Source: an uncultured Planctomycetales bacterium (GTDB taxonomy: Bacteria > Omnitrophota > Gorgyraeia > Zapsychrales > CAYRXT01). From it: a stretch of 64,000 bases of DNA. Below, in pieces: positions 4,107-58,511 of this stretch. The translations under genes were made by a program, and so were the position numbers. Each line of letters opens with the position of its first letter. Within the stretch, counting starts at the first letter, position 1. The notes beneath the pieces were generated by a model that did not search any database, was not told the DNA's origin, and worked only from the letters and a program-made list of their open reading frames with translations. Where the stretch lies: positions 4,382-68,381 of the forward strand of contig CAYRXT010000004.1 in NCBI GenBank assembly GCA_964428315.1, in the 5' to 3' direction.

Positions 4107-5108
4107 TTATTGAAAATGTATCTTCCGAGCCTTGTCCTTCACCACTTCGCCGATGTCCCGGCAGGGAACCCGCATTCTTTTCATCATGTCCCGAACGCCC
4201 GCGGCATCCTTCCGTGAAACGGCCAGCACCATGCCAATCCCCATATTAAAGACCCTGAACATCTCCCGCGTATCGATATTTCCCTTGTGCTGAATGCGCC
4301 GAAAAATCGGCGGGACTTCCCACGATCCCCGCCTGATCAAGGCACAGCAACCCGAAGGGATAATCTTTGTCAGTTTTTCGTAAAAGGACCCGCCGGTCAT
4401 ATGGGCTATACCCTTAACGGCAAATTTCTCCACCGCCCGCAGGACGGGTTTGACATAAATCCGCGTCGGCTTCAAAAGTTCTTCGGCATGACGTTTTTGC
4501 TCTTTCTCCGAAAAAACCTTCCGCACCAAAGAAAACCCGTTCGAGTGCAGTCCGTTAGATCCTAAACCGATAAGAACATCCCCGGCCTGAATTGTCCTTC
4601 CGTCGATCAGATTCCCTCTCTCCACAACACCTACAACGAATCCGGCCAAGTCGTAATCCTTCCCTTTATACATACCCGCCATTTCCGCGGTCTCCCCTCC
4701 GATCAGACTGCATCCGGCGCTCCGGCATCCGCGGGCGATTCCTGCCATCACCTTCTTTAACACGGCAGGATCAAGCCGGCCGCAGGCAATGTAATCCAGA
4801 AAAAACAGGGGCCGGGCCCCCGAGCAAACCACGTCGTTCACGTTCATCGCGACCAGATCGACGCCCACCGTATCGTGGAGTCCGGCAAGAGACGCTATCA
4901 TAAGTTTCGTCCCCACACCGTCCGCTGAAGACACGAGAACAGGAAACCTGTAGGCCCCGGCATCAAAAGAAAAAAGGCTGCCGAAGCCTCCTTTCTGTTT
5001 GAGAACGGCGCCGCTGTGCGTCGCCGAAACCAGAGAATCGATAGCTTGGATAAAGGCATTCGCCTTTTGAATATCCACGCCGCTTGTTTTATAGGACATT
5101 TTGTTCAT
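4107..5108 (-). CDS. purM: Phosphoribosylformylglycinamidine cyclo-ligase (AIR synthetase)
   Basis: 333 aa; SYKTSGVDI N-terminus and PurM/AIRS fold motifs. Confidence 0.9.
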   Translation of the reverse strand: MNKMSYKTSGVDIQKANAFIQAIDSLVSATHSGAVLKQKGGFGSLFSFDAGAYRFPVLVSSADGVGTKLMIASLAGLHDTVGVDLVAMNVNDVVCSGARPLFFLDYIACGRLDPAVLKKVMAGIARGCRSAGCSLIGGETAEMAGMYKGKDYDLAGFVVGVVERGNLIDGRTIQAGDVLIGLGSNGLHSNGFSLVRKVFSEKEQKRHAEELLKPTRIYVKPVLRAVEKFAVKGIAHMTGGSFYEKLTKIIPSGCCALIRRGSWEVPPIFRRIQHKGNIDTREMFRVFNMGIGMVLAVSRKDAAGVRDMMKRMRVPCRDIGEVVKDKARKIHFQ

Positions 5109-29300: not shown

Positions 29301-32300
29301 CTCTTCTAAATGAATGATCGTGCGCCGGGCCAGGTCTCTCAGAATATAAGACTCATGGGCATTGGAGGAAAAGTTTTTGAGTTGAAAAGACATGCCGGGA
29401 TCATCTCGATAGGCGGCGGAGCGGCGCACGATATTTCTGAGTTCTGCCAGAGAGAGAACTTGTCCCCGAAGCCGTTCTTCCCAATAGTCCGATAATTCAT
29501 AAAAACGATTGCGCTTCAGTAAGATATCGAATTTCTGTCTTCCAGCATTTTCGGCCCGGAAAAAAAGATGCATGTATTCCGATCCGCCCATTTCTTTGAA
29601 ACCCTGAAATTTAAATATGATGTTGTTGGAATGGACCTCGAGGCCCCGGAACTGTAACGGAACCGACTTTCCGTTCTTGCGAACAATCCCGATGACGCCC
29701 TGTTCAAAGAGCTCCAGGATATGCCGTTCCATTTCTTTCAAATCGACAAATTTGTTTTTTCTCAAACCCGAATTGGTCAAAAGAATGAGCTTGATTTTAT
29801 TTCCGATGTAATTGGCCTTGATGCCAGTCAACCTGAATTGTTTTTGAACAAGGGGTTTGGAGGGCTGAACGTCGAATGTATTCTTCTTATCCTTCCTCAG
29901 ACTCCCGGATAACCGCCGGAGGAAGACCTCTTCTGCAGTAATGACCTTTTTGCGTGACCTCAGGTTTTTTGAAAGACTACCCGCCAGGCAAATGACCGAG
30001 ATAAACTCGATGATGGGAACGCCAAACTTTGACCACCATCTTCCGAGAGGCGTTTGGATTTTAGGGATATTGGCAATGGCCGGATTCTTGTTGTCTTCGC
30101 CGGTATTGTCTTTCCGCACAGCGGCGGCTCCTGTCTGTAAGTTCCCCGAATGTTCTGTGTTTTGATCTATCGCATCTATCCTTAAGACCCCGAATATCCG
30201 TTTTATCTTTTGCCAAATGCTTGTGACGGAAGAGCCTTCCTTCGTCCCCCCGTTTTCCAAGGCGGCTGTATCCGGGCTGTTCTTCTGATCTTTCAGTACC
30301 GGTAAGCTCTTATCGGACGGCTCTCCCTGCTCTTTTTTTGCTTCCCTGCCTTCCCCGGAAGGGGCCCTGTGCAGTTGGCCCTCTTCCCAAAGGACTTCCA
30401 CGGCGTCGGCAATCGCCGCATCGGAGGTGTCTTTACCGTCAAGGTTCTGATTGCCTCCCTTCCAGGGGATCGGACTGCTGACGATACGTCCGTCCGTAAG
30501 CCGGACATCACCCGTCACCGGGACCTTGTCGTGCAACTGCCGGGCCACGGCGAGGGCCTCGAAGGCAATCCTGGCGGGACGGTCCGGACGGCTCCAGTCC
30601 GTGCGCACCAGCACATCCACCGTATAATTTATATAGTCCTGATCGATGGGGCCGTCCCGGGCCGTCTCCTTCCCTATAAGGACAGCCAGGTAACGGTTCA
30701 GGGTTTTCCTGTCAAAGGGCAGGATCTTCTCTGGCCGGGGTGTTTCCGGTTGCCGGGGCTCATGTTCTTTCCCTGCGGGTTCTCCGGATTTTTCTTTCAC
30801 ATCTTTTCCCGCGGCAGCGTCAGCGGAAACGGTTTCAGCGCGGCGGGCATCTTCCCTCCCGGCGGCCTCATCAGAGACCTCTTTTTCACCGGGCACTTCT
30901 TCATCCACCGCGTCCACCGCCTTTCCCTGTGCTCTTTCGGCCGGATCGCCGGCGGCCAGTTCGACGGGCATCCATGGTTTCATCGCCTCCAGAAGCTGGC
31001 CGCGCTCGTCTTCATCGACCGGCATCCCGTCGATCTCCTCATGGTCCTGAAGGAAGGCGTACATGTCCGTGACGGGGACAAAGCCCGTATTCCCGATGAC
31101 AAAACCCCACTCCTCTTCATACCGGACCATGGGGCCCAGTCGTCCGCGGACGGCGGGATCCCGTTCCAAATGGACGTAATCCTCGGGCGGCCGGTTTTTC
31201 GCCATCTGCCCGTCCAGGTAATCCCTCATAATCTCTTCCAGCATGCCCTCCCCGGCAAGATAACGGGATCCCTGCGAGGCGAGGTACGCCTCCATCTTCC
31301 CCCGCACCTCTTCGAGCCTTCGGCGCTCTCTTTCCAGGTCCTCCATAAGTCTCAGGGTCCGGTCATGCTCGACGGACCGGAGCCGCTCAATCAATACCTC
31401 ATACGCCCTGATCCTTTCGTCAATATCGGCCATAACGCTTCCTTCAACGGTCCTGTGATGTTCATTCTGCCGGTCGGTCTGTTCGGCCAGCACCTTCTCC
31501 CTGGCCTTGTCCTGTTCCTCCCTGTCCCGGGCCTCCCCCATCGCGTCGTCGGGTGGATAACGGAATTCGGCGCGGACACCCGCCGTCTTGTCTTCCGCCA
31601 CGCGGATTCCCAGACGAAGGTTATCATTGACATCGTAATCCATCCCTCCGCTGATAGGTCTTCGGCCGGCGGGGTCATGCCCCTTGTTTTCCTGGTCCAA
31701 CAGATACGGCATACCCCCCTCCGTTATCCCCACCGGCATCTCGAAAACACCGCCCCATCGCCCGCGCCGGTATTCCGCGGCCATCCCGTGTCCCGGCCCT
31801 TCTCCCTGGAACGCGGCGATACGGTATCGCCATAACAGATTGCCCCCGAACAGGTCGGCTCCCACCGGAAAATCCAGGTAGGCGCCGGCCGCGTCCTGAT
31901 AGGGCACGTACACCACGCCCGCCGTCACCGGCACGGCGAATATCCCCCGTCCGCCGCTGCCCATCTGCGCGCTGAGATGCCACACGTTTCCGTCCAAGCG
32001 GTCCCAGTCATCGCCGCGCAGATTCAGGGAAAACCGGAAGGTGTGGCCGATGACCGGCGTCACCGCCCTCAGACTGAATCCGAAATCTTTCCGGGCATTG
32101 TCACCCAGCGCCGTATACCCAATCTCGCCGCCCTCGGAACTGTAACGGCCGACAAGCGAAAATCCCGCGGGGCCCACGTTAAGACCGCTTTCGGTATCCA
32201 CCGTCATCCGTCCCTGTCCGTCATGTCCGGTATAGGCGGCGTCGATACGGACATCCGGCCTGGCCGCGGGGCCTCCCCCGCCCCCCGGATCCAGTCCGCC

Positions 32301-35300
32301 GGCACCGGTCGGGATCTTCACCTTGGTATACATCTCGATCATGTTTTGGGAATCGTGCCCGATGGGTTCCGTGAAGTACCGTCCGCCCCATCCGAAATTC
32401 TCTATCCCGAAAGGATTCTTCAGCTCCACACCGTACTGCCATGCGTATTTCTCCGCCGACATGAACGGCACAATATTTTTGACAAGCGAGGGATCCTCAA
32501 ACTCACGCGTTACCCAGAATTTCCCGGACTTGGCCACATCTCCCATAGGGATGTTCTCTATGGCTCCCGTGTACCGGTTGTCGTTCAAGCGGTCCCCGCC
32601 GATATTGTTCCCGTCCAGCCTCTCCCAGGTAAAACCCACCGTTACCCCGTCCCTGATGAGTTCATACCCCACTTCGATGAGGCCGAAATACACGTTCCCG
32701 TATCCGTCCGTCACCGTCGGAAAATGCGGCCGCAGGATACTGAACTCAACGCTCGTCGACAATCCTCCCGAAAAGGGCGGCGACATGCCGAAATGGAAGC
32801 CCCGGGTTCCATAGCCCTGGTTGATATCCCGCACGACCCCGACGGAATGCGGCCAGGGAATCCAATTTAATGGGGCCTTCCATGTCAGTTGCGCCGAAAG
32901 CGCCCCTTTGTCCGGTTTCGCCTTGATGCCCACTTCGAGGGGCTTTCCCACGAGATCCCCGGCGTCGGCCGTGATTTTCGCCTCTGGGTATTTGTCCTTT
33001 CTCTCAACACCGCCGCCTCCGGCTATCGACCGGCCGCCCTCCGGGATCCAGTGTGACTTTTGTTTGACTTCAGCCTTCTTGATATTAATGTTTGCCATGT
33101 TGAACAAAGAGGGATCGCCTTGTCCCGCCGGCCGGACAACCTCCGCTTGACCGGATTCCGGGGAGGAAGGTTCCGCGATATCACCCTCGTTCCCCGCTGA
33201 TCCCCCGTTGTCTGTCCCGGGAACCGGCAACCCTTTCTTCGGAACGTTGTTTCCCGGCGGACTTCCGTTACCGTTACCGTCGCCGCTGCCGCCGTCCGAA
33301 CCATTACCGCCGCCGGGAACCGCGCCCAAACCGGATCCGGGGAATGAAAGCTCCGCGTCCCCGTCGCCCGGCATGATATCCAAAGGCACCGCCGCGTCCT
33401 GATCCCAGCGCTCCGTGAAATTACCGGTCTTCCACGCAATGTCGTCAAGCGCCTTGCGGAACCATCTCCAAGCGGTCTCATAACGTTCCGGGAACTTCGT
33501 GACCAGGATATTGCCCCCGCCGGGATAAGGGACATTGCTCACGAACTTCCCGTCCACAGGATAGTCGAAGGTCACCATGCCCCTGCCCGCATCCAGTTCG
33601 ACGGCGCCGAAAAGGGCCTCGGCGGCGATTCTCAAATCCTTTATCTCCTCCGTCGTCAACGCGGCGTCGGGATTTTGATAATAGGTTAGCAGGATCCTGG
33701 CCGTATTCCTGATATAGCCATCATTGATGTGTCCGAACTTTTTCAGAGGTTCCAGATACCGGACGATAGACGCCTCATCAAAAGACATATCCTTTTCTAT
33801 CCGGGGCCCGGTCTGCGCGGGAGGGTCGGCGAGAGGCGGATCAACCCTTTCGGGAGAGATTTTTGCCGTCTCTCCGCCGCTGACCTCGGTCTCCAAGGGG
33901 CCGGCCGGATCCCCGGAGCTTGTCGGGAGGATGTCTTCTTCTAAAGAGGTCCCCGTCATGTTTCCCGGTGACCCGGGCTCCAGATAATAATGCTCCGAGA
34001 GATGGACATTGGGCGGCGGGAGCACCGGGAAGAAACCGGCTGCTTGGTATCCATGAACAGCCGTCGGGATAACGTTCAGATGCGGTTCAAGCGGCGAATC
34101 GGAGGGATCCGGCGGCGCCTGTGGGAAAAGGGGCATTTGTGCCGATTCGATAGCGCCGAATATCGTCATCCCGATCATCAGAGCGGCCATATGCGGCAGG
34201 TATTCCCTGGCCTTGCCGCGCATGGAGACGAGGACATTGGGATTGAGCTCAAAACGCGAAGGCGTCAGGTGACGCCGTATAGCGGCATTCCGCATCTTAC
34301 GGCAGAAAACCTCCAGGTCATAAAACGTCACGTGCCTTTTTTCCTGAAGATGAAATTCCCGGTCTCGCAGGGTGAAATAATCCAGGAGTTTCTTCAGGTC
34401 GCTTTTTCTCCTGTCCGCGGAGGAAAAGGCGTGGTGGACCAGCCTCTCGGCCGCCTCGGTCCCAAACTCGTATTGCGCGGCCTCAAAAACCCATGCCTTC
34501 TTTATATTCTGGATGAGGCGGCGGATTTCCAGGACCGCCTCGTGCGCGTCCGTCCTGGGATCCACGAATATCTGCTGTTTGCCGTCGATCTGTTCGATCC
34601 GCACCATTTTGGATCGTTCGTTGTCCGCCACGTCATCGAAACGGGTGACCGTGACATCAAAGCGCCTGTTGAATATCATGTCGCAGGGCGAAGATATCTC
34701 CCGGATCTTCTCTTCAATGAGCTTCCACTCCTGAAAAAGGCCCCTGGCCAGTTCCTTGGCCTCCTGTCTCTGCCGGTCGCGAACGTCCTTTCTCCCGTGA
34801 TAATCGAAATGAAACCTGACGGGAAGGTAAGATGTCCGCAGAAGATAATCAGGCGCATAGGTCTCCAGCGCTCTGCCGATGAAACGGCCAGCCTTGTTCA
34901 GATATTTAATCTTGCGGCCGGACAAGACGACGGCATGCGAATCCGGGCCGTAAACGTACATGCCGCGGTCAACGGAAGTTTGGATGGTCTGCCTGGCCGC
35001 CAGCAGGGCGTCGGCATAGTCATCCTTCCCGTTGGCCAGTAATGCCGCCAGACGTTCGATCTCGCCCAGGGCCTGGCCGATCTGGTCCTCTTTCAATCCG
35101 GGCGTCGTCAGGATATCTGTTATCAGACGGTCCAGCCATCCCATCATCCGCCCGCCCAGGGCATTGATCTGGTCCTTGTTAACGGCCTCCGGCGCGAGGT
35201 CCGAATAAACCAGTTGGTCGATAGCCTCGCCCGTTATATTCCTGTGCGCCGCCTTCAGCCGCCCTCTGGAGCCTTTCAGCAGCCGGGAGATCAAGGGGGA

Positions 35301-36896
35301 CGGCCGCGCGTCCAAAGCCCCGTCGATCTTTTTCAATTGAATAGGGATCTTGTCCTCGAAGAATCCTTCCAGTACGGCCTGAAGGCTGAATAACCTTGCC
35401 ATGGGAAAAAGGATTTGGAGGAGGGCGGAATATCCCAGCACGCCGAAAGGACGCGCGCGGCCCTCCGGTTTGTTCCCGCTCTTCAAGGCATCAGGATCCG
35501 GTGTGGGACCGGCCGGCGTTGAAGGCATGGAAGGTACGGCATCCGGTTCCTCACCCGCGGTTTCGCGCCCAGAGGCCTTACCCAAGGAGGGCTTCGCAGG
35601 TAACGGGCCCATGGCCGTCTTGAGTTTTATGCTCAGTCGGTGAAGCTTCCCGCGGATATGATTCAGCATCTCCCGCCCGACGACGGGGCTTATGCCGGCC
35701 ACCTTGCGGGTCTTGACCCACCTTCGCAGGTTGCCCCATGACATGCCTCCGGAAAAATACCGGCGGTGCACGAAATCTTTTTTGAAGGGGTCATAATCGG
35801 TGCGGATGATGTCATGGGTTCCCTCTTTATAGGCGTCGATATAACGCTCATAGATTTTTTGTTTGGTCTCCCGGTCGTCAAGGTCGACGCCCCGGATCTT
35901 GTTCCTGTCGGCGTAAATGCGGTTCACGACGTTGCGCCTGAGATTAAGCTTGAACCAGGCCGCCAAGATCAGGGAATGGTAAAGCTGACGCAGACCGGTG
36001 AACTGGCGGCCCTCGTTGATCTCCTTCTCGATCTCCGGCAGGATAATCTCCGAGAATATCCTGCTTGACATATTGTGGACCTCGGTCACCTTCTCGGTCT
36101 CCAGGATGTCGGTACCGAGATTTTTGTTCCTGAGATTATTCTTGAGGGCCAGGTAATCCCCTTCCATCATCACCTTGAGCCGGCTCCTGGTCACGAATGC
36201 CTTGTTGCCGATCTCGTAAACAACAGCCTCATCGGGAAGGATCCAGACCTTATTGAACGTGTTGATCGGGAAATCCGTGGTTCCGTAAACGGCGTGCACC
36301 TTCTCATAAATCCGTTCCCAGAACCTGCGGCCGGAGGGTTCCTCGGGGTTGGTCAGCACCGAAGAGAGCTGCTTGAGGAGATAATCCTGGATAAGCAGAT
36401 CTTTTCCCGCGTCCGTGGCGCCGAGATAGTCCGGTATTATGCGGTCCGACTCGTACGGGGAAAGGTTCACCCAAAGGTCTTCTTCGGGCACGGTCAGGAA
36501 GGCCAGAAAATATTTCACTAGCCGCGAGGCCTCTTCTTCGTCGAGAGAGGCCTTGTCACCGGAATCGATGATGAAATCGATCTTAAAAGGGTCCTGGGGG
36601 TCGACCTGAATTCCCCTTAATATCGGCGGGGAAAATACCGTCGAGGACGGCATCACCGCGGAGGGGGCGGGCAGGACAAGCGGCGCCTGCGCCCGCGCGT
36701 AACGCAGTCGCGCGACGTCCAGGGCGATGATGTTTTCGCAAAAGAAGAGCAAAACGGCAAGGGAGAGAACGCGGAATGTCCTGGAGTCGCGACGGAAAGC
36801 GAAAAATCCCGGCCGTCCAGGCGGATATCTTGTCCGGTTCAAACCCGGCCTTCCGTTTCCGTTTTGCTGCGCCCTGTGTCTGGTCGTTCGGGTCAT
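26307..36896 (-). CDS. Giant 3,529-aa envelope-associated protein of unknown function
   Basis: Uninterrupted 10,590-nt ORF. N-terminal Arg-rich segment plus hydrophobic signal/anchor (VLSLAVLLFFCENIIAL...ARAQA). Gly/Asn/Asp low-complexity linker, a ~500-aa Gly/aromatic-rich beta-type segment, an acidic coiled coil, and a Lys-rich C-terminal third with several hydrophobic helices. No P-loop, protease, glycosidase, RTX or cadherin motifs seen. Confidence 0.85.
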   Translation of the reverse strand: MTRTTRHRAQQNGNGRPGLNRTRYPPGRPGFFAFRRDSRTFRVLSLAVLLFFCENIIALDVARLRYARAQAPLVLPAPSAVMPSSTVFSPPILRGIQVDPQDPFKIDFIIDSGDKASLDEEEASRLVKYFLAFLTVPEEDLWVNLSPYESDRIIPDYLGATDAGKDLLIQDYLLKQLSSVLTNPEEPSGRRFWERIYEKVHAVYGTTDFPINTFNKVWILPDEAVVYEIGNKAFVTRSRLKVMMEGDYLALKNNLRNKNLGTDILETEKVTEVHNMSSRIFSEIILPEIEKEINEGRQFTGLRQLYHSLILAAWFKLNLRRNVVNRIYADRNKIRGVDLDDRETKQKIYERYIDAYKEGTHDIIRTDYDPFKKDFVHRRYFSGGMSWGNLRRWVKTRKVAGISPVVGREMLNHIRGKLHRLSIKLKTAMGPLPAKPSLGKASGRETAGEEPDAVPSMPSTPAGPTPDPDALKSGNKPEGRARPFGVLGYSALLQILFPMARLFSLQAVLEGFFEDKIPIQLKKIDGALDARPSPLISRLLKGSRGRLKAAHRNITGEAIDQLVYSDLAPEAVNKDQINALGGRMMGWLDRLITDILTTPGLKEDQIGQALGEIERLAALLANGKDDYADALLAARQTIQTSVDRGMYVYGPDSHAVVLSGRKIKYLNKAGRFIGRALETYAPDYLLRTSYLPVRFHFDYHGRKDVRDRQRQEAKELARGLFQEWKLIEEKIREISSPCDMIFNRRFDVTVTRFDDVADNERSKMVRIEQIDGKQQIFVDPRTDAHEAVLEIRRLIQNIKKAWVFEAAQYEFGTEAAERLVHHAFSSADRRKSDLKKLLDYFTLRDREFHLQEKRHVTFYDLEVFCRKMRNAAIRRHLTPSRFELNPNVLVSMRGKAREYLPHMAALMIGMTIFGAIESAQMPLFPQAPPDPSDSPLEPHLNVIPTAVHGYQAAGFFPVLPPPNVHLSEHYYLEPGSPGNMTGTSLEEDILPTSSGDPAGPLETEVSGGETAKISPERVDPPLADPPAQTGPRIEKDMSFDEASIVRYLEPLKKFGHINDGYIRNTARILLTYYQNPDAALTTEEIKDLRIAAEALFGAVELDAGRGMVTFDYPVDGKFVSNVPYPGGGNILVTKFPERYETAWRWFRKALDDIAWKTGNFTERWDQDAAVPLDIMPGDGDAELSFPGSGLGAVPGGGNGSDGGSGDGNGNGSPPGNNVPKKGLPVPGTDNGGSAGNEGDIAEPSSPESGQAEVVRPAGQGDPSLFNMANINIKKAEVKQKSHWIPEGGRSIAGGGGVERKDKYPEAKITADAGDLVGKPLEVGIKAKPDKGALSAQLTWKAPLNWIPWPHSVGVVRDINQGYGTRGFHFGMSPPFSGGLSTSVEFSILRPHFPTVTDGYGNVYFGLIEVGYELIRDGVTVGFTWERLDGNNIGGDRLNDNRYTGAIENIPMGDVAKSGKFWVTREFEDPSLVKNIVPFMSAEKYAWQYGVELKNPFGIENFGWGGRYFTEPIGHDSQNMIEMYTKVKIPTGAGGLDPGGGGGPAARPDVRIDAAYTGHDGQGRMTVDTESGLNVGPAGFSLVGRYSSEGGEIGYTALGDNARKDFGFSLRAVTPVIGHTFRFSLNLRGDDWDRLDGNVWHLSAQMGSGGRGIFAVPVTAGVVYVPYQDAAGAYLDFPVGADLFGGNLLWRYRIAAFQGEGPGHGMAAEYRRGRWGGVFEMPVGITEGGMPYLLDQENKGHDPAGRRPISGGMDYDVNDNLRLGIRVAEDKTAGVRAEFRYPPDDAMGEARDREEQDKAREKVLAEQTDRQNEHHRTVEGSVMADIDERIRAYEVLIERLRSVEHDRTLRLMEDLERERRRLEEVRGKMEAYLASQGSRYLAGEGMLEEIMRDYLDGQMAKNRPPEDYVHLERDPAVRGRLGPMVRYEEEWGFVIGNTGFVPVTDMYAFLQDHEEIDGMPVDEDERGQLLEAMKPWMPVELAAGDPAERAQGKAVDAVDEEVPGEKEVSDEAAGREDARRAETVSADAAAGKDVKEKSGEPAGKEHEPRQPETPRPEKILPFDRKTLNRYLAVLIGKETARDGPIDQDYINYTVDVLVRTDWSRPDRPARIAFEALAVARQLHDKVPVTGDVRLTDGRIVSSPIPWKGGNQNLDGKDTSDAAIADAVEVLWEEGQLHRAPSGEGREAKKEQGEPSDKSLPVLKDQKNSPDTAALENGGTKEGSSVTSIWQKIKRIFGVLRIDAIDQNTEHSGNLQTGAAAVRKDNTGEDNKNPAIANIPKIQTPLGRWWSKFGVPIIEFISVICLAGSLSKNLRSRKKVITAEEVFLRRLSGSLRKDKKNTFDVQPSKPLVQKQFRLTGIKANYIGNKIKLILLTNSGLRKNKFVDLKEMERHILELFEQGVIGIVRKNGKSVPLQFRGLEVHSNNIIFKFQGFKEMGGSEYMHLFFRAENAGRQKFDILLKRNRFYELSDYWEERLRGQVLSLAELRNIVRRSAAYRDDPGMSFQLKNFSSNAHESYILRDLARRTIIHLEEKTAVLKNYKKALSSGQNDRRGNEESLKGLREELTSLTGESAAAAGYRKPEILQQCDECLAKLDEYLHYFKERKDLSNEVRHLASLVASIYGYRHDFLPEKDKLKISLKFLDRWVVPIDKMKRLLSGSDFWLKRYFWRLKHRSLPRFYRQSERVDTLETRILGRRRPVRALKRDRLEKEYYLFRKYIEEPPLDLSGRALSSKHKRLFRFFNNMAAMGAGLAFLFFVFGLPPAALLAAGQLLTVMTFRALIGPLWINRKINVEYRRWKDSAEVSEGDGTEGDPVLFSRNGGKPEDEFLKTLNEKLGINTSRFNPVSLFLLKGEEYSGVEVRRMNGGLEIVFVNEGFIGTYRFRKKTRERIARLLETEDVILKVGGRSIPPEKISLDISPESKIRIRVEDALGDAEGNGKATIRFRDSNQEKRYRELQLPVKVDDFQGVLNRGYKILMEKDLPQISELDDLIAGLEVFMDNYPLDFEKFKDFDTYYARLRKMASELSRFLYEKAGEAIKSEENDYHARFEYLLTLVETLNEAKGALGNFSNVDSYKSRYYPDTDKFGMKWGFPWAKLNRRLSGIKVNSDEFQLNTYKAINKYIQKLRVLKNKKASLFGESLDEAALERDLSSERRRLRRRAKELFMTYMFPPNYSGVGGYHFLNNMRMWSISISAVLVGLTLALSLYNAMALWTGMPSVGIDSLAVALVPLLKIPIVFGQSSFLVVGVLYLLLKHFLEPFNAKMKLSAEFFYYDRLVKILRNADNGRLNILQRLIASGVGLFSKMACRGMKGFFEKFNFKRAKFLSNIYSGDMPEWGISLFYMGAFFFPVLGLFGVLTMEVYAFFQEWKTNRRDRSNGISGSSGHGGISRPLKAPGPGSSNGVLSVVGEPPGVYNLRERRNNADIKATREGIPEKDQEHVAVSSGSPIMPPADRGNSGGIDWTTTEIKLRSDGKGDIRWGDIPVPDAEIQNFPGFEYDILQFHLIPNHVNFILGLDDGKRKKKSLSMLSN

Positions 36897-44025: not shown

Positions 44026-45219
44026 TTAATAGACCGCCCCTTTCAAGGCCGCCGGAAAGACCGTCCATTCCCCCTCCCTGCGGTTGATGCGGTCGACGCA
44101 CTTCAAAAGCCTGTCCCGACGGGTCTGGGACTCGAAAAGATACAGAGGATCCGCCCGCGTCAGATTGGACACGCTCACGCCCAGGACCCGGGCGCAGATC
44201 TTTTTGAGGCCCATCAATCCCGCGATACGCAGACAGCGGCGGTATATTTCCCGGCCGTCGTAGGTGGGCTCGTAAAAGGTCTTGCGTTTGGAAAAGCCGC
44301 CGGTAAGTTCATCGCTGATGGTAAAACACACGGTCCGGCCCCAGAGATTCTTCCGCCGCAGGCGGAAACCCACCATCTCCGAAAGGAGATAGATCCATTC
44401 CCTGATATACCTCCCATCGGCCGTGGCCTCCCTCAGGGTCTGGGAATGGCCGACGGATTTAGGGGGCCCGTCCTTGTCCGCATAACAGCCGATACCCCCG
44501 GAATCCTCCGCCCGGCAGGCCGCCTTGAGCCACAGGCCGACCACCCCGAAATGTTCTTTGAGGAGGCCGTCGGGATATTCCCCCAGCTGGCCGCAGGTGC
44601 GGATCCCGAGGCTGTTAAAGCGTTCCTGCAGGCGGCGGCCGATGCCGCAGATCTTCTGCACGGGAAGGTCCCGGAGGATGGACAAGGCGTTGTCCTTGCC
44701 GAGGACGACGAGCCCGTCGGGTTTCCTGAGCTTGGCGGCCATCTTGGCGCTGAGCCTGGTCGGCGCGATGCCGACCGAACAGGTGATCCCGAAACGATCC
44801 CTGATTTTTCTTTTAATCATCCGGGCGATCTCTTCCGGCGGCCCCACCGAGCGCCGGCAGCCGTTGACGTCCAGGAAGAACTCGTCGATGGAGAACTTTT
44901 CCACGCGGGGGCTGAAGTGTTTCAGGAGCGCGAAGATGCTGTTGGAGGTGTACACGTACTTGGCCGTGTCCGCCGGGACGAAGACCGCCCGCGGACAGAT
45001 CCTGAGGGCCTTCCAGGAGGGCATGGCGTTGTCCACGCCCATGCGTTTCGCTTCATAAGAAGCGGCGCATATAATGGAGCGGTATTTGTTGTTGCGCCCG
45101 CCGATGATAACCGGCCTGCCGCGCAACGACGGGTTCACCTGCTGTTCGATGGAGGCGAAAAACGCGTCCATGTCGATGTGCATAATCAGTTCGGACACGG
45201 CCATCGGACGATATCTCAC
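44026..45219 (-). CDS. dinB: DNA polymerase IV (Y-family)
   Basis: IMHIDMDAFFASIEQ N-terminus plus palm/fingers/little-finger pattern. Confidence 0.9.
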   Translation of the reverse strand: MRYRPMAVSELIMHIDMDAFFASIEQQVNPSLRGRPVIIGGRNNKYRSIICAASYEAKRMGVDNAMPSWKALRICPRAVFVPADTAKYVYTSNSIFALLKHFSPRVEKFSIDEFFLDVNGCRRSVGPPEEIARMIKRKIRDRFGITCSVGIAPTRLSAKMAAKLRKPDGLVVLGKDNALSILRDLPVQKICGIGRRLQERFNSLGIRTCGQLGEYPDGLLKEHFGVVGLWLKAACRAEDSGGIGCYADKDGPPKSVGHSQTLREATADGRYIREWIYLLSEMVGFRLRRKNLWGRTVCFTISDELTGGFSKRKTFYEPTYDGREIYRRCLRIAGLMGLKKICARVLGVSVSNLTRADPLYLFESQTRRDRLLKCVDRINRREGEWTVFPAALKGAVY

Positions 45220-45503
45220 TCCATCGGCATCACTTTTTCCAGACGCCAGTGGGTGTGCCGGCTGTTGAAATAGATCTGGAAGACATTGCCGCCGTCGGTG
45301 ACGGTGAAATAATGCAGAAGGTCATCCCCCCTTCGGTCTTTCCAGCGGTAGGTGATCTCCCTGACCGCGTATCTGCGCCCCTCCCAGACGAACCAGCGCG
45401 GATAGAGCCGCCCTTTTTTGCAGATAACCCCGACCTCGATGGCCTCGGCGCCGCGGTCCTCGGCGGGGAGGTGTCTGTCCCAGCGGGAATCGTTGGTGAA
45501 CAT
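45216..45503 (-). CDS. Small Trp/Arg-rich hypothetical protein translationally coupled to dinB
   Basis: ~95 aa from MFTNDSRWD (GAGGA SD upstream); stop overlaps the dinB start (ATGA); no known motif. Confidence 0.45.
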   Translation of the reverse strand: MFTNDSRWDRHLPAEDRGAEAIEVGVICKKGRLYPRWFVWEGRRYAVREITYRWKDRRGDDLLHYFTVTDGGNVFQIYFNSRHTHWRLEKVMPME

Positions 45504-45750
45504 GGCCTCTGTCCTCAAACGTTTTTGCCGAATGCTAAGAGATGAGCGATGAGAAGAGACGGGAAAGGAACGGGCGGCCCTGCGCCGCATCAAAGATGCG
45601 GCGCAGGGCCGACCTTCTCCCGAACCGCAACAACTATACCACACGCCTGTGTGGGTGTAAAGATAATTCTTCTCCCTCAAAAAAATATCCCCCCGTCCCC
45701 GCCTGAGGCGGCAACAGGGGGATACAGATCACGGTCAACACAAAACACGC

Positions 45751-46803
<1,053 letters not shown>

Positions 46804-46877
46804 GATAATCACTCCTTTATTAAGCGGATTGTTCGTTAATGGATTGTTTGCGCCCGGCAAGCCCGTGAAATTGACAT

Positions 46878-46906
46878 ATGATACAACATCCAGCGTCCTT
46901 GTGCAA
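46878..46906 (-). promoter_or_regulatory. Sigma70-type promoter for fbaB
   Basis: Minus strand TTGCAC-17 nt-TATCAT, ~80 nt upstream of the fbaB ATG. Confidence 0.4.
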
Positions 46907-47049
46907 ATGAAAAAACCGAATTACCGGAAAATCGGGCGGGAAAAGATGAGGATATCATCACAACTCAATGCGTAAGATATGCATATGCCCTTTGGGAATT
47001 CTTTCTAAAGGCGGCATGTCAATCTGTCCGGATCCAAACACAAAACGGG

Positions 47050-48246
47050 TTATGTCTTGCCTTCTTTCGCTCTCTGAGCTTCAAGCCATATAAACAAGTA
47101 CTGGAGATCACTGGTAAACTTATATCCTCCCCGGTCGGCCTCCTTATCCTCCATTAGCACTCCCAATTCTTTCATCTTACGCAAAAAATTATCAAAAACT
47201 CTCGCCTCTTCCGCTTTAAGGTTGTTAACGGCATCCTTTCTCCTGAATTGAGTTTCAAAGGGTCTGTTGGCCAATTTGCGCAATATCGTCCGATACTTCT
47301 GACTCCGAATGGCGTTATAAACCTGCGGTTCAATATATTTCTGGCCGATAACATCCGCCGCTCTTAAAACACCCTGAAGCGCATCTTGATCATCAATCCG
47401 GTCATCTTTATCAACTTTGAAAACGGCATCTCCTATTTCATGAGCTAAAACAGGATACCCCCCGGAAAATTTGCACAGCGTGTTCAGGGCCTGAGGATCG
47501 ATCTCAACACCAACTTTCAAAAAAGATTGTTTAAAAAATTCAGCGGTTTCTTCTCGTGACAACTTTTGAATCTCAATGGGATCAAATACTCTTGCCAGAG
47601 ACGGCTGGCATTTGAACAGCTGCATTCTGCGTTCCGGCAGACCGACCAAAACAAGGAGCACGGGCAGAGGCAGATCCGATGTGGCGACTTCATCTACTAA
47701 ACTCTTCAACCAGTTTGCAAATTCCTCGGAGCAAGCCATGCCATTAATATCATCCAAAACCAGCACAATGCCCTTCTTGCCGTTACCAAGCTGTTGGATA
47801 AGGCGGCGCATAGACGAGGCAAAATGATTAACCAACGGATTCAAATCCTTTGCATCAGCGCTAAATTCCACGGTCACTCCAAACAGTCCCACTTCCCGAA
47901 CATGTTCCCCGAGAAAAGATTTGATTTTCTGATACCAAGGGCGATCAATACTGTCTCTTAATATCTTTTCAAAAATTCTTCTGACCATTTCCTGCAACGA
48001 ATTGACTCCGCCAAGAAAGACATGGACACCGAAGACTCCGGAGTCTTTTTCGGCAATAACCCTTCCAATATGGCACAATGAACTCTTGCCGATCCCTCTG
48101 TCTCCATAAACAAAAATACGCTCAATCCGTCCTTCAGAAGCAGCCTTAGCCTTATCCGCAATAGACCTGACCTCCTGGGCCCTGCCGACAAAAAAGTCCA
48201 CCGGGACAGGGACTCCGGGGGTAAAAGGGGAATATTCTTTGGGCAT
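47050..48246 (-). CDS. Orphan AAA-type ATPase (archaeal-ATPase-like family) in a low-GC island
   Basis: FFVGRAQEV...YGDRGIGKSSL Walker A, LVLDDI Walker B; gene and flanks are markedly A/T-rich versus surrounding DNA. Confidence 0.75.
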   Translation of the reverse strand: MPKEYSPFTPGVPVPVDFFVGRAQEVRSIADKAKAASEGRIERIFVYGDRGIGKSSLCHIGRVIAEKDSGVFGVHVFLGGVNSLQEMVRRIFEKILRDSIDRPWYQKIKSFLGEHVREVGLFGVTVEFSADAKDLNPLVNHFASSMRRLIQQLGNGKKGIVLVLDDINGMACSEEFANWLKSLVDEVATSDLPLPVLLVLVGLPERRMQLFKCQPSLARVFDPIEIQKLSREETAEFFKQSFLKVGVEIDPQALNTLCKFSGGYPVLAHEIGDAVFKVDKDDRIDDQDALQGVLRAADVIGQKYIEPQVYNAIRSQKYRTILRKLANRPFETQFRRKDAVNNLKAEEARVFDNFLRKMKELGVLMEDKEADRGGYKFTSDLQYLFIWLEAQRAKEGKT

Positions 48247-48445
48247 TTTTTATCTCCTGCGACCGTAAGTCTTCCAAAAAACTGTTTTATTTTAACATAC
48301 CTGCCTGAAACTTATGAAATAATTTTCAATTCCTTTCTTTTTAAACCGGAGCGGATTCACTGGATTCATAGAAAAAAGAGCGCCTCTGCCAAATTATGCG
48401 TGTCAAAATTAGGAATGCAATGTCGAGGAGAACTCGTCTTAGAGA

Positions 48446-48586
48446 CATGGAGCCCAACGGGCAAGCCCGTGATCCCTCTCTTATCCGACTTCGTAAATCT
48501 TCAGGCGCAATCCGACGAAGCGCCACGGCTTTTAGTCCGCATTCATCCACGGCTAAAAGCCGTGGTATTCTGCGAAGTCGGATAAA
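48446..48586. repeat. 141-bp structured repeat, copy 1 (REP/MITE-like)
   Basis: ~95% identical to 56513-56653, same orientation; contains hairpins CACGGGCaaGCCCGTG, GGCGC...GCGCC, CCACGGCTTTTAG...CTAAAAGCCGTGG, enclosed by TATCCGACTTCG...CGAAGTCGGATA. Confidence 0.7.
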
Positions 48587-48632
48587 CCGCCGTCACGCCC
48601 AGGACTATTGTCCAGCGGATCTCTTTCATATC

Positions 48633-49319
48633 CTATTTCCGGTAAGAGGAATAGACAATCCTCACTTTTTCCGACAGGACGAGATCGTGGGGAACTATCA
48701 TTCGCCGCTCCAGGGGCAGTTCACCTCCGGCAAGCATGCGGATAAAATCCTCATAAGGCCGCCAGTTCAAATCCCCAAGCCGCTTCAAGCCGGCGAGACG
48801 GATTCCCGCCCCGAACATTGACGCCTTGTAGATCAGCTCTGAACAGTAGATCTTCCGGTCATCCATTTCATAGAGGACATCGTACGGCCTGCCGAGGTAA
48901 CGGTAGGCGGCGGCAACAACGGCGGGGATCGCCGGTTTATAGGCATCTTTCAGACGGACAACGGTGCATTTCTGACCGATCCCGAAGGCGATCCATTGAT
49001 TCAACGGCGTCTCTTTCACGGGCCCCACCGCCTCCAAGACATAATAGCCGCCGCTTTTTTGGATGATGATGCCGCAGTGGTTGTAACGGCTGGCCGTCAC
49101 GCCGGAGATCACGTCCAAGAGATCGCCGGGCAACTGCTGAAAAATGAAATCGCCGTGGCGGACATCCATGCCGCGCGTGTAATTGATGAACCGTGCGCGG
49201 AAAAGCGCCGCGAGATAAGATGTCTCGTTGACGGCAAGAATATAAATGATCCCGACGATAAAAACGAACCAAAGGCAGATTGTTCTGATGCGGTCATGCT
49301 GCGGCTTCATGAAAGGCAC
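48633..49319 (-). CDS. Permuted papain-fold amidase, YiiX/YaeF (C92) family
   Basis: N-terminal TM/signal; His-then-Cys order (NHCGIII ... YCSELIY) typical of the permuted family. Confidence 0.65.
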   Translation of the reverse strand: MPFMKPQHDRIRTICLWFVFIVGIIYILAVNETSYLAALFRARFINYTRGMDVRHGDFIFQQLPGDLLDVISGVTASRYNHCGIIIQKSGGYYVLEAVGPVKETPLNQWIAFGIGQKCTVVRLKDAYKPAIPAVVAAAYRYLGRPYDVLYEMDDRKIYCSELIYKASMFGAGIRLAGLKRLGDLNWRPYEDFIRMLAGGELPLERRMIVPHDLVLSEKVRIVYSSYRK

Positions 49320-49328
49320 CGGTCGTGT

Positions 49329-49601
49329 TCAGCGGTCTTTTCGCCCCGTGTCCCGTAACTGACACTGTCCCAGGGCAAAGGCCAAGAGGGAGCCGAACAG
49401 GATCATCCACGGCAGATCGAAATGCCCTCTCTGCCGCAGGGAAAGATAACCCGTAAAGACAAAAAACGCGCCCCAGAGGACCTTCCGGCCGGGCTTTAAG
49501 CCGAAACCGTCACAATAGGAGAAATACATATAAAGCACGTAAGCTCCCAGCGCCAGCCATTCCAGAAAGATGTCCTCTGAAGAACAGGCTACCGCCATCA
49601 A
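49329..49601 (-). CDS. Small hypothetical membrane protein
   Basis: 90 aa, two hydrophobic helices. Confidence 0.45.
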   Translation of the reverse strand: MMAVACSSEDIFLEWLALGAYVLYMYFSYCDGFGLKPGRKVLWGAFFVFTGYLSLRQRGHFDLPWMILFGSLLAFALGQCQLRDTGRKDR

Positions 49602-49957
49602 TCATATCCTCCCTTGGAAAGCAGGTTATGAATAAATCTCTTTATCCGGCTCTCTCCTCCCAGTTTCCCGTGAACCGACTGCAGTTTGCTCTCCATGGTC
49701 AGGGGCTTGTCCTTGCGGTCATCCAGTTCGATGAAGGTCACGATCCTGTCGCTGGATTCGAGGGCGGCGCGGTGCATCTTTCCCGCCACCGTAAAAAGCT
49801 GTTCGATAGTTTCACCCTCGACGATCGTCCCCATCGGCGTCGTCTGGTGGGATGTGTCTTTTTCTTCATCCAGCGCTTTCAGGGCAGGAATAATCTTGTC
49901 GCTCACCGAAGCCGTCTTTGTGCCCAGAGGCAGAATCTTGATTTCCATAATCGGCAT
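49598..49957 (-). CDS. MTH1187/YkoF-family (UPF0045) small ligand-binding protein
   Basis: ~115 aa, MEIKILPLG...ASVS N-terminal pattern typical of the family. Confidence 0.6.
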   Translation of the reverse strand: MPIMEIKILPLGTKTASVSDKIIPALKALDEEKDTSHQTTPMGTIVEGETIEQLFTVAGKMHRAALESSDRIVTFIELDDRKDKPLTMESKLQSVHGKLGGESRIKRFIHNLLSKGGYD

Positions 49958-50203
49958 GATTGTTCCTCCTCGTCTCGTTCCCCCGGCCCCTCAAGGACCG
50001 GCACCTTCTTTAAATATTTTTCCTCTCATCATCCTGCTGTTTCTCATCATACCAAGTCACTTTCTCTCTGTCTATTCTTCTTCTTTAAATGTTGCCCCAT
50101 CCCCCCTCGTTCTGCCGCCCTCCGGCCATATTGACCCCCCGGGGGACTAATGATAGAATGATTTCCCCCGGCCAGGACTCCCTGGCCTCACGGAGAAGAC
50201 GCG

Positions 50204-55519: not shown

Positions 55520-55915
55520 ATGCACAAACTGGCCATATCTACCGGCAAACGGGAAGAAATCACCGACATCACCGGACGCATCCGGGACTTTATCGAAAAA
55601 AACAAATGCCGTTCGGGCCTCCTGGCCGTCTACTCGCCGCATACGACGGCAGGCATATCGGTGAATGAAAATTACGACCCGGACGTCAAGAGAGATATCA
55701 CCGCCTACCTCAACGCAACGGTGCCCGCCGATTTCGGATTCCGCCACGCCGAAGGCAACTCCGACGCCCATATCAAAGGGGCCCTGGTCAATTTCTCCCA
55801 GGTCTTCATCGTCGAGGACGGGCAGATCCGGCTGGGCACCTGGCAGGGCGTCTTCTTCATGGAGTTCGACGGCCCCCGCCGCAGAGAGGTCTGGCTTCAG
55901 TTCATCCCCGCTTAA
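55520..55915 (+). CDS. yjbQ: YjbQ/UPF0047 family protein
   Basis: 132 aa; C-terminal LGTWQGVFFMEFDGPRRREV matches YjbQ TGTWQGIWLGEHRIHGG. Confidence 0.8.
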   Translation: MHKLAISTGKREEITDITGRIRDFIEKNKCRSGLLAVYSPHTTAGISVNENYDPDVKRDITAYLNATVPADFGFRHAEGNSDAHIKGALVNFSQVFIVEDGQIRLGTWQGVFFMEFDGPRRREVWLQFIPA

Positions 55916-56039
55916 TACCGCGGACCGACAGCCGCACAAAGAGCCGTTCACAACCCGTCCTCCGCAGGAAACCGCAGTCATGCCGCGTCTCGCGTTACAG
56001 TGCGACAATCATAATATTTTTCGGATAAAACGGCAAGGA

Positions 56040-56500: not shown

Positions 56501-57283
56501 TCAAGGGCCCAGCATGGAGCCCCACGGGCAAGCCCGTGTCCCCTCTCTTATCCGACTTCGTAAATCTTCAGGCGCAATCCGACGAAGCGCCACAGCTTTT
56601 AGTCCGCATTCATCCACGGCTAATAGCCGTGGTATTCTGCGAAGTCGGATAAAAAAGAGCCAGCGCGTATAAATCAAGGTCACGAACGCCCCCCAGGCGA
56701 CGCCCCAGATGTCCCACGCCGGATTGGCAGACTGCCTGACGCCTCCGTCCAGATAGGAATAGTGATAACCGCTCATGAATCCCGCCCAGAGGTAATCACG
56801 GCTGACCGCGGCGCTGTAAGCGGCCGCCCCCAAGTAGATAACGGAACGCAAGACATTCCGCCTCCTCGGGTCAAACGCAAGTTTGGAAATATATCCCTTG
56901 GGCGGGACATCGATCAGCATGAAAAGGTTAGAGGCAACCAATCCGTTTATCGCTCCCGGATACGCACCAAAGACTAAATGTTTCCAGTATCCGGCAGATA
57001 GAAGCTCTCCTCTCAACAATCCCCCCAAGACCATGATACCGGCCCCGCACAACGCCGCCAGGGCCATGCCGTAGATGATATTTCTTTTTTCTTTCAGAAC
57101 CCAGACCATCAGCCAGGCGAAGAATAGTCCCGTGAGTCCGCCCAAAGACCAGGGCAAAATACGGGTAAATACAAAAGAATCCGGAGCATTGTTGTGGACA
57201 AAAAGCATAAAGAGATAACTGTTCGTCAAGATCATATAGACATAAACGACACCGGCCGCCGCCTTTGTTATCCTCTCATTCAT
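56501..57283 (-). CDS. Hypothetical polytopic membrane protein; C-terminal ~45 codons encoded by the 141-bp repeat
   Basis: Start MNERITKAAAG at 57283 (8-bp overlap with the radical SAM gene); the ORF reads into repeat copy 2, giving tail ...LLAVDECGLKAVALRRIAPEDLRSRIREG, which is also translatable from copy 1. Confidence 0.55.
   Translation of the reverse strand: MNERITKAAAGVVYVYMILTNSYLFMLFVHNNAPDSFVFTRILPWSLGGLTGLFFAWLMVWVLKEKRNIIYGMALAALCGAGIMVLGGLLRGELLSAGYWKHLVFGAYPGAINGLVASNLFMLIDVPPKGYISKLAFDPRRRNVLRSVIYLGAAAYSAAVSRDYLWAGFMSGYHYSYLDGGVRQSANPAWDIWGVAWGAFVTLIYTRWLFFIRLRRIPRLLAVDECGLKAVALRRIAPEDLRSRIREGTRACPWGSMLGP
56513..56653. repeat. 141-bp structured repeat, copy 2
   Basis: See copy 1; lies inside the 3' end of the CDS 56501-57283. 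Confidence 0.7.
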
Positions 57284-58511
57284 TGTTGTCTTCTCCCTCT
57301 TTCCATCCCAGCTGTTTGTAGAATTCCGGTATCCCGCCCTGGGAACACCGGGCGCACAGCGCCAGGGATTCGTCATAACCCAGCGGCAGCTTCCCCTTAA
57401 AGGCGGCCCGGATTTTATCGGCATTGGAAAGGATAAAGCATTGCCCCCGGGGCCGGCCGAAGGCCTTGTGCAGGCGGGCGAAAGGCGTCTCAAAACCTTC
57501 CTCTTTCAGGTTGCCGAAGGACAGCGGCGTGAAATCGCACGGGCAGAGGTTCCCGAAGGCGTCGACGTACATGTGCTGGACCCCGGCGCCGCAGCCGTAA
57601 AGGTCCTCGTCCTCGATATAGGCAAAGGCCACCACCTTCGGCATATCTTTGACCTTTTTCGTCTTGATGTGATACTCTTTGAGAAGCTGCCGCTCCTTTT
57701 CCCCGAAAAGCGCCTCCCCGCGGACCTCCATCAGTCTGCCCGTCGGCATCGGCTCCACCAGGCGGATCTCCTGCGCGCCGAGCTCCCGCACAAAACCGAT
57801 AAACCGGTCCATTTCCCCGTCGGACATAAGGTCCTTTGTCGCCGTCAACTGGACGGCCGTATAAAACCCGCCGGCCAAAGCCGTCCTGATCGCGCGGACG
57901 GCGGTATCGAAGGCCTTTGGCGACCCGCGCAGCCGGTTGTGTTTTTCCGGGTCATAATGGTCAAGGCTGATCGCCACATACGTCAGACCGGCTTCCTTCA
58001 ACCTCCCGGCCCGCTCGTCGGTCAGCCCGTCGCCGGTCGAAAACAGTATCGTCGCGGAGCGTTCGTCGATCGAACGGACGATCTCTTCCAGGTCCCTGCG
58101 CCACAACGGCTCGCCGCCGGTAAAACCGATCAGGCAGATCCCGTGGTCCTGAAGCTCGCGCGCGACGCGGATCCATTCTTCCGTCGTCAATTCCTTTCCT
58201 TCACGCAGTTCTTTACTGCAGTGCCAGCACCGGAACCCGCATCGGTCGGTCAGGGACAGGTACGTGGAATACGGGGCCGCGCGGCCTTCATAAATGGCCG
58301 CGGTCGTCCTAGTCAGCTGTTCAAAGGCCCGGCCGGGAAAGGGCGGCAGGAAGGTATGGATCACGTACCGGCCGTCCATCCGGGTAAGCTTTTCGTGCCG
58401 GAAGGTGCTGTTGAGATAAGCCTGCACACTGAGCGGAAGCTTGCGGACATACCCGGTGCGCGCGCGCACGGCGAGGATAACATCTTTCTTGAATCCCGTG
58501 ATATGTTTCAT
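57276..58511 (-). CDS. Radical SAM enzyme with C-terminal SPASM/twitch-type Cys cluster and ~90-aa N-terminal extension
   Basis: CGFRCWHC (CxxxCxxC) at ~residue 90; C-terminal CGAGVQHMYVDAFGNLCPC...CARC auxiliary-cluster cysteines. Confidence 0.8.
   Translation of the reverse strand: MKHITGFKKDVILAVRARTGYVRKLPLSVQAYLNSTFRHEKLTRMDGRYVIHTFLPPFPGRAFEQLTRTTAAIYEGRAAPYSTYLSLTDRCGFRCWHCSKELREGKELTTEEWIRVARELQDHGICLIGFTGGEPLWRRDLEEIVRSIDERSATILFSTGDGLTDERAGRLKEAGLTYVAISLDHYDPEKHNRLRGSPKAFDTAVRAIRTALAGGFYTAVQLTATKDLMSDGEMDRFIGFVRELGAQEIRLVEPMPTGRLMEVRGEALFGEKERQLLKEYHIKTKKVKDMPKVVAFAYIEDEDLYGCGAGVQHMYVDAFGNLCPCDFTPLSFGNLKEEGFETPFARLHKAFGRPRGQCFILSNADKIRAAFKGKLPLGYDESLALCARCSQGGIPEFYKQLGWKEGEDNNE

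Follow-up and report, generated by a model that had tools for sequence, protein, structure and literature searches.

What is the 141-nt structured repeat that occurs twice in contig CAYRXT010000004.1 (assembly GCA_964428315.1), and how did it come to lie where it does? An initial annotation made from the letters alone had described two copies in the same orientation, 8,067 bp apart and with unrelated flanks. We analysed the surrounding 64,000 nt (positions 4,382 to 68,381 of the contig; hereafter the window), and this description was confirmed. The starts of the two direct copies (Table 1) are 8,067 bp apart, and the copies agree at 136 of 141 positions (96.5%), the five differing sites being 48456, 48472, 48473, 48527 and 48557 (copy 1/copy 2: A/C, A/T, T/C, G/A and A/T). 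Similarity breaks off sharply at either end. On the minus strand the unit begins with TTTATCCGAC and ends with GGGCTCCATG, termini that are not complementary to each other; copy 1 lies between GACGGCGG and TCTCTAAG, copy 2 between GGCTCTTT and CTGGGCCC, and a third copy, described below, between ATGGTN and A(Y)AGYAA as deduced from its protein product. Comparison of these flanks revealed no target-site duplication at any of the three copies. There are no terminal inverted repeats either: a 13-bp inverted repeat reaches one unit end only, and the unit extends 35 nt beyond it at the other. An exact-seed repeat search, BLASTN and a covariance model all failed to reveal further copies in the window, and the ~6 kb of extra flanking sequence from Logan contigs has none, leaving two units in 64 kb.

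The position of copy 2 was the most informative. It sits in the 3′ end of an open reading frame (ORF), 56501-57493, and its location within the last part of a membrane-protein gene, claimed earlier, held good, gene positions included. Copy 2 forms an exact 47-codon in-frame insertion three codons ahead of the native stop: removal of exactly its 141 nt gives an ORF ending in ...TRWLF-LGP with the stop codon unchanged. No other single observation argues as strongly for a secondary arrival of the unit. That the insertion is in frame is in itself unsurprising, because one of the three frames of the unit is open on that strand.

A third copy was recovered through its translation. The three stop-free frames of the unit were translated and searched against protein databases, including a full HMMER search of 1.84 billion representative proteins. 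Only two matches were real, the ORF of the window itself (P0001) and P0002, which is encoded on a separate 6,027-nt contig, taken as belonging to the same assembly, and whose unit-encoded stretch is 94-97% identical to that of the window. Three matches to giant proteins were weak and short and were judged spurious. The P0002 ORF, from which alone copy 3 is known, runs through the third copy into a PF05635 (four-helix-bundle) gene, whose start is about 15 nt from the tail of the copy. Its frame moves from -0 to -1 between RSRI, at the end of the stem P1, and ERDHRLARGAP, in the tail, with 21 unrelated residues between them; we deduced from the protein that ~62 nt separate the two modules of the unit (the junction module and the tail, see below) in copy 3. 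Because of this intervening sequence, the modules are separable and yet co-travelling. Together with the precise in-frame insertion of copy 2, the copy on another contig upholds the earlier view of a dispersed DNA-level repeat.

The initial annotation had itself raised the possibility that the two copies were a local assembly or duplication artefact. We compared the window with Logan contigs, which are independent assemblies of runs SRR7048225 and SRR7048224. These contigs are 100% identical to the window; they cross the border between unique flank and unit and break off once the copies no longer differ (L018, 48558-56569; L024, from the second run, 48557-50006; L025, 56627-61205). Three of the four junctions were confirmed in this way: for copy 2 both of them, and for copy 1 the high-coordinate one (in both runs). 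No contig spans the low-coordinate junction of copy 1; L001 ends at 48435, 10 nt short. Since three junctions are matched at 100% identity by independently assembled contigs of two runs, the repeat is not an assembly artefact; the copies moreover differ at five positions, and a third lies on another contig. Although the source assembly of the window was found in neither of the public DNA collections scanned nor in the contig index, we give an artefact practically no credence. The other contigs enter the unit by ~30 nt, and the early end of L001 at 48435/48436 might be due to a gap in coverage or to a polymorphism at this junction in the sampled population.

The strong self-complementarity noted earlier was evident in every fold computed. 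The 141-mers fold on both strands at z = -5.2 to -6.9 as RNA and at z = -5.9 to -8.0 as DNA, and none of 200 shuffles was as stable in either case. The unit consists of a 105-nt junction module and a 35-nt tail module (Table 1); the former is a three-way junction that the perfect 13-bp inverted repeat (stem P1, 13-14 bp) closes. On the minus strand the order is the P1 5′ arm TTTATCCGACTTCG, CAGAATA, the long hairpin P2, the short hairpin P3, TGAAGATTTA, the P1 3′ arm CGAAGTCGGATAA and the tail. Within P2 lies a competing 8-bp hairpin, CCACGGCT-AAA-AGCCGTGG at 48547-48565 (CCACGGCT-TTT-AGCCGTGG on the minus strand); copy 2 carries two uncompensated substitutions in the long P2 stem and retains the short P2 hairpin intact. 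The P3 loop contains a second direct copy of the inverted-repeat core ATCCGAC (GTCGGAT on the minus strand). The tail, again on the minus strand, comprises a purine-rich linker AGAGAGGG, the GC hairpin CACGGGC-TT-GCCCGTG and a terminal GGGCTCCAT(G), ending in GGGCTCCATG. The 105-nt module has three ATCCGAC boxes, two of them direct and the third inverted, and a 7-mer occurring at least three times was seen in 1.4% of shuffles; the CCACGGCT box is likewise found three times in this module. The threefold boxes suggest putative repeated protein-binding sites.

The stems named in the initial annotation thus exist (GGCGC/GCGCC, CCACGGCTTTTAG/CTAAAAGCCGTGG and the outer inverted repeat), with some correction of detail. 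The outer repeat, TTATCCGACTTCG/CGAAGTCGGATAA, is 13 bp long and not 12. The CACGGGCaaGCCCGTG hairpin is not enclosed by it, as had been supposed, and sits in the 35-nt extension on the low-coordinate side; its 7 bp are present in copy 2 (56523-56538), whereas copy 1 reads AACGGGC and has just 6 bp (ACGGGC-aa-GCCCGT at 48457-48470).

Table 1. Positions in the window of the repeat copies, the parts of the unit and the features beside them.
Feature	Position	Strand	Remarks
Copy 1 of the unit	48446..48586	(-), strand of the flanking genes	intergenic
Copy 2 of the unit	56513..56653	(-)	inside the 3′ end of the ORFan membrane-protein ORF
P1 left arm, TTATCCGACTTCG, 13-bp inverted repeat	48481..48493		copy-2 equivalent 56548-56560
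P1 right arm, CGAAGTCGGATAA	48573..48585		1 nt from the high-coordinate unit end; copy-2 equivalent 56640-56652
Long hairpin P2, CCACGGCTTTTAG/CTAAAAGCCGTGG, 13 bp	48523..48565		arms 48523-35 and 48553-65; copy-2 equivalent 56590-56632
Short hairpin P3, GGCGC-aATCCGACgaa-GCGCC	48504..48524		arms 48504-08 and 48520-24; copy-2 equivalent 56571-56591
Tail module, outside the inverted repeat	48446..48480		35 nt, low-coordinate side
ORFan membrane-protein gene (P0001), 260 aa	56501..57283	(-)	residues 211-257 encoded by copy 2
nSTAND1/AAA_16 ATPase gene, 398 aa	47050..48246	(-)	directly downstream of copy 1, in the low-GC island
13-mer TCACGGGCTTGCC	46856..46868	(-)	~55 nt upstream of the aldolase ATG, far edge of the nSTAND1 island

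We then compared the unit with known classes of small repeats. MITEs, or miniature inverted-repeat transposable elements, carry terminal inverted repeats at their bounds and target-site duplications in their flanks. Because the inverted repeat of the unit is not terminal (35 nt lie beyond it, and the ends are unrelated) and no target-site duplication is present, the defining MITE features failed, and with them the likeness to MITEs proposed by the initial annotation. Its comparison with repetitive extragenic palindromic (REP) sequences and bacterial interspersed mosaic elements was not sustained either, given the low copy number and the one copy inside a gene. The GT[AG]G foot of REP sequences is absent: the minus-strand hairpin feet read AATA-CCACGGCT and GGAT/GGGA-CACGGGC, those of the plus strand TCAT-CCACGGCT and CCCA/GCCC-(A/C)ACGGGC. 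Single CACGG...CCGTG hairpins are not dispersed through the window outside the units (3 found, 1.5 expected).

Some features are nevertheless shared with families of this kind. As in IS200/IS605 elements, whose end layout is described in PMC6006769, both unit ends have a subterminal hairpin, whereas terminal inverted repeats and a target-site duplication are lacking. Read on the minus strand, CCACGGCT-TTT-AGCCGTGG begins 21 nt from the 5′ end, and 10-11 nt lie between CACGGGC-TT-GCCCGTG and the 3′ end. REP sequences and REPINs are mobilised by RAYT (Y1 HUH) transposases (PMC6006769, PMC3116915). With these and with IS200/IS605 the unit has in common that it is small, non-coding and placed between genes, that its sequence is species-specific and that it folds equally as single-stranded DNA; P2 further resembles a REPIN in being a doublet of inverted short palindromes that makes a larger hairpin. 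In contrast, the three-way junction closed by an extra 13-bp inverted repeat has no counterpart in IS200/IS605 or REP sequences, and REPINs number tens to hundreds of copies as against the three known here, one of them inside a gene and with no Y1 transposase gene in the window. The left guide candidate AATA is complementary, position by position, to TTAT at the 5′ boundary, a motif that with three copies is inseparable from the element.

Two further groups resemble the unit by description. The Correia/NEMIS, ERIC and RUP MITEs are likewise 100-150 bp long, strongly structured, located near gene ends, co-transcribed with their neighbours and near-identical among copies within one genome. Rickettsia palindromic elements (RPE) are ~100-150 bp palindromic repeats able to sit in-frame within protein-coding genes that stay intact; similarly, copy 2 lengthens its host protein by 47 residues while the native stop is preserved, with no obvious terminal inverted repeats or target-site duplication. 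The comparison with RPE, made by description and not by sequence, differs in that only one of the three copies lies in a gene and that the phylum is another.

Searches for relatives outside the window gave the same answer throughout. A DNA pattern scan (ATCCGACTTCG-N65-95-CGAAGTCGGAT, with exact 11-bp inverted-repeat arms), which would miss diverged relatives, returned 2 matches in GTDB species representatives and 13 in JGI metagenomes, all unrelated to the unit; the window itself is absent from both collections. Plasmids and phages (BLASTN) and IMG/VR yielded no match to the unit, nor did Rfam for the whole window at gathering thresholds; at E≤10 only mir-879 and mir-135 appeared around copy 1, at <30% of their thresholds, which is miRNA noise. 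A covariance model of the unit detected no diverged copies over the window, three loci of relatives and four Logan contigs. The earlier statement that the sequence belongs to no recognised family is therefore upheld across these collections, and from these searches the repeat family appears lineage-restricted. Neighbouring genes have their best named homologues in Candidatus Omnitrophica metagenome-assembled genomes (MAGs), the nearest relative at 63% amino-acid identity; the nearest relatives' loci, reached via the SPL radical-SAM gene, share 53-63% protein identity and are not syntenic with the window. One literature search turned up no paper on the mobile elements of Omnitrophota, and none that mentions run SRR7048225 was found.

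Most of the pattern-scan matches are REP-like palindromes of the form CGAAGTCGGAT-wwATCCGACTTCG in Xanthobacteraceae MAGs and soil-type metagenome contigs. This family, CGAAGTCGGAT-(A/T)(A/T)-ATCCGACTTCG, occurs as inverted pairs ~100 nt apart in L002 and L003 (the Xanthobacteraceae MAGs) and in the metagenome contigs L004, L006, L008, L011-L013 and L015, and shares with the unit only the 11-14-nt arm forced by the pattern.

On balance, and with modest confidence, we take the unit to be a small, non-coding, non-autonomous mobile DNA repeat without terminal inverted repeats, moved in trans by a structure- or site-specific enzyme and with modules that correspond to the two ends of a parent element. 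In one Omnitrophota-like genome the unit would have entered at least three unrelated sites by secondary insertion, and its spread would be fairly recent because the copies are ~96% identical. The junction and tail modules would be the ends of a larger parent element, of which the unit would be a deletion derivative retaining both; we infer this from copy 3, which carries extra sequence between the modules. The mover would be supplied in trans and would read folded or specific ends, an enzyme of that sort being the most likely because terminal inverted repeats and target-site duplications are both lacking. Such an enzyme could be a single-strand transposase with an HUH/Y1 domain, as in the IS200/IS605-RAYT group, a recombinase of the IS110 type or some other site-specific recombinase.

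Several observations weigh against this interpretation. No transposase, integrase, RAYT or reverse transcriptase was recognised among the window proteins by Pfam scan or by eye, and no conserved target motif is visible across the three sets of flanks. For an HUH enzyme in particular, the would-be right-end guide differs between copies (GGAT versus GGGA) while the terminal nucleotides are identical. No empty-site allele was seen: the relatives at 53-63% identity are not syntenic, and the Logan contigs of both runs that enter copy 1 from the high-coordinate flank show no empty site. Just three copies are known, with no evidence of amplification, and all three are oriented alike relative to the next gene, which would also fit a cis-acting RNA.

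Could the unit act as RNA instead, that is, as a structured minus-strand element in a 5′ untranslated or intercistronic region (a processing site, stabiliser or attenuator), or as a small multicopy RNA, controlling the downstream gene? All three copies lie on the coding strand upstream of a gene with the tail nearest the start codon, at distances of 199, 44 and about 15 nt; as minus-strand RNA the unit folds strongly (z about -5.2 to -5.7), P2 can switch between its 13-bp and 8-bp hairpins in the manner of an attenuator, and one copy-2 stem substitution gives a G-U pair on the minus-strand RNA and an A-C mismatch on the plus strand. Same-strand placement is, however, the default here. About three quarters of the window genes are on the minus strand, and most intergenic spacers are 3′ of one such gene and 5′ of the next, so the 3′-end placement that the initial annotation had pointed out is uninformative. 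All stems are perfect Watson-Crick and fold equally on both strands and as DNA, which is a signature of DNA palindromy and not of an RNA using G-U pairs; perfect 13-bp Watson-Crick stems are, besides, unusual among regulatory RNAs. Of ~7 substitutions among the three copies, 4 fall in stems (~54% of the unit) and none is compensated, a comparison of low power at 96% identity that fits neutral decay and agrees with the earlier argument from non-compensatory substitutions against a conserved RNA; apart from the G-U pair the stem changes are disruptive. Also against an RNA, Rfam gave nothing at E≤10 beyond miRNA noise, the covariance model found nothing comparable in the relatives' loci, and a consensus scan detected neither a promoter-like site in the unit nor a minus-strand terminator-like site. 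The nSTAND1 gene has its own promoter-like site (48318-48289) downstream of copy 1, copy 2 reaches into the end of the coding region of the gene before it, and the three downstream genes (an nSTAND1 ATPase, an ORFan membrane protein and a PF05635 four-helix-bundle protein) are functionally unrelated. We consider a cis-acting or small RNA unlikely, if worth keeping in mind. Two more specific roles were rejected. An outward promoter or intrinsic terminator is not supported, there being no promoter and a sole terminator-like match, on the plus strand, in which the tail hairpin of copy 2 precedes CCTCTCTTAT; this is a weak pyrimidine run, and there is no plus-strand gene upstream. A hammerhead ribozyme, brought to mind by CUGAAGA...GAA in the junction, lacks the A15.1-U16.1 pair, has extra nucleotides at stem II and has no Rfam hammerhead match.

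Other alternatives concern recombination and reverse transcription. The unit might be a recombination or attachment module edging small accessory-gene cassettes, with the tail hairpin as crossover site, loosely like attC or att sites. All three downstream genes are accessory or ORFan, a low-GC island holding the nSTAND1 gene is edged by copy 1 and by the direct 13-mer TCACGGGCTTGCC, and copy 3 has extra DNA between the junction module and the tail hairpin. Like integron attC sites, the unit is 141 nt long (at their upper size limit), shows imperfect dyad symmetry with a branched centre and lies between the 3′ end of one gene and the 5′ end of an accessory gene, with copies that are highly similar within the genome, as in sedentary chromosomal integrons. 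But the dyad ends are ATCCGAC/GTCGGAT and not RYYYAAC/GTTRRRY (the sole GTTRRRY, GTTGGGC on the minus strand, is in copy 1 alone and unpartnered), P1 is a perfect 13 bp without unpaired spacer, bulges or extrahelical bases, and the window has neither an integrase gene nor a cassette array; an attC site in the strict sense was rejected for the missing R''/R' core sites, the perfect P1 and the lack of an array. The copies are, moreover, 8 kb apart with housekeeping genes of both strands between them, the 13-mer is a single post hoc find that is only suggestive after correction for 18 comparisons, and the gene that follows copy 2 has no equivalent repeat on its far side, just a 9-mer and one weak match. 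We regard such a module as rather improbable. A similarly low probability attaches to a bolder scheme, in which the modules would be the ends of an undescribed transposon or recombination system without terminal inverted repeats, the three-way junction with its three ATCCGAC boxes would, as DNA or RNA, be recognised by or guide a recombinase whose gene lies in another part of the genome, and the tail hairpin would be a crossover capturing accessory genes; the nSTAND1 island bracketed by TCACGGGCTTGCC and the PF05635 gene would be candidates for captured genes. Finally, copy 2 lies at a gene 3′ end like the variable repeat of a diversity-generating retroelement (DGR), and copy 3 adjoins a PF05635 gene, a family that we take to include the DGR accessory protein Avd; likewise, the plus-strand order of inverted repeat, short hairpin, long hairpin and inverted repeat resembles the a2-msr-msd-a1 order of a retron non-coding RNA. 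Neither a reverse transcriptase gene in the window nor one beside copies 1 and 2 was found, however, and a DGR template/variable repeat pair is further opposed by the mere five differing sites, which are not limited to the adenines of one copy on either strand, by the intergenic position of copy 1 and by the palindromic nature of the repeat. Of a DGR or a retron we think very little indeed.

The surroundings of the two copies in the window are as follows. Copy 1 lies just 3′ of a YiiX-like C92 peptidase gene, as the initial annotation had it, 46 and not 47 nt past the stop codon (48633-35), and 199 nt ahead of the nSTAND1 ATG. The low-GC island (46900-48450, ~1.6 kb) has 43-47% GC against 55-60% in its flanks, with nSTAND1 as the sole gene; it looks horizontally acquired, and it has no match among PADLOC defence models. 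The 13-mer TCACGGGCTTGCC at its far edge is identical, in direct orientation, to part of the copy-1 tail hairpin (48461-48473), so that the two bracket the island. It is the longest partial match to the unit elsewhere in the window, where 0.23 such 13-mers are expected and none of 200 local shuffles had an equal one; it is possibly a recombination core or relic, or chance. Between copy 2 and the ATG (56468) of the next gene, which encodes an ORFan membrane protein of 142 aa, there are 44 nt, and no homologues were found for either of the two ORFan membrane proteins beside it. Just past the stop of the 142-aa gene (55900-55923 region, minus strand) is a 9-mer, TTTATCCGA, that equals the first 9 nt of the unit, and CCGCGGTATTAAGCGGGGATGAA at about 56030 (minus strand) is similar to the short hairpin within P2 (p about 0.035 before correction); chance probably accounts for both.

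Elsewhere in the window, a 3,529-aa ORF on the minus strand (26307-36896) has a strong coding score and no Pfam match at E≤0.001, and encodes a giant protein. A 397-aa ORF at 44026-45219 (minus strand) looks by eye like a DinB-type Y-family DNA polymerase, and a DUF6504 ORF (45216-45680) lies directly upstream and overlaps its start; the pair (44026-45680) may be a damage-tolerance or mutagenesis cassette.

The unit represents a sequence family that has not been described before and is most probably selfish DNA, of the kind of small parasitic structured repeat common in bacterial genomes. For now it merely adds to the orphan repeat families, and it would bear on an open question only if its partner enzyme proved new. 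Small structured repeats affect gene ends, operon transcripts and the quality of assemblies, and every short-read contig that we retrieved breaks inside the unit. Omnitrophota being an uncultured phylum, a catalogued two-module repeat could lead to the mobilising enzyme and could serve as a strain marker.

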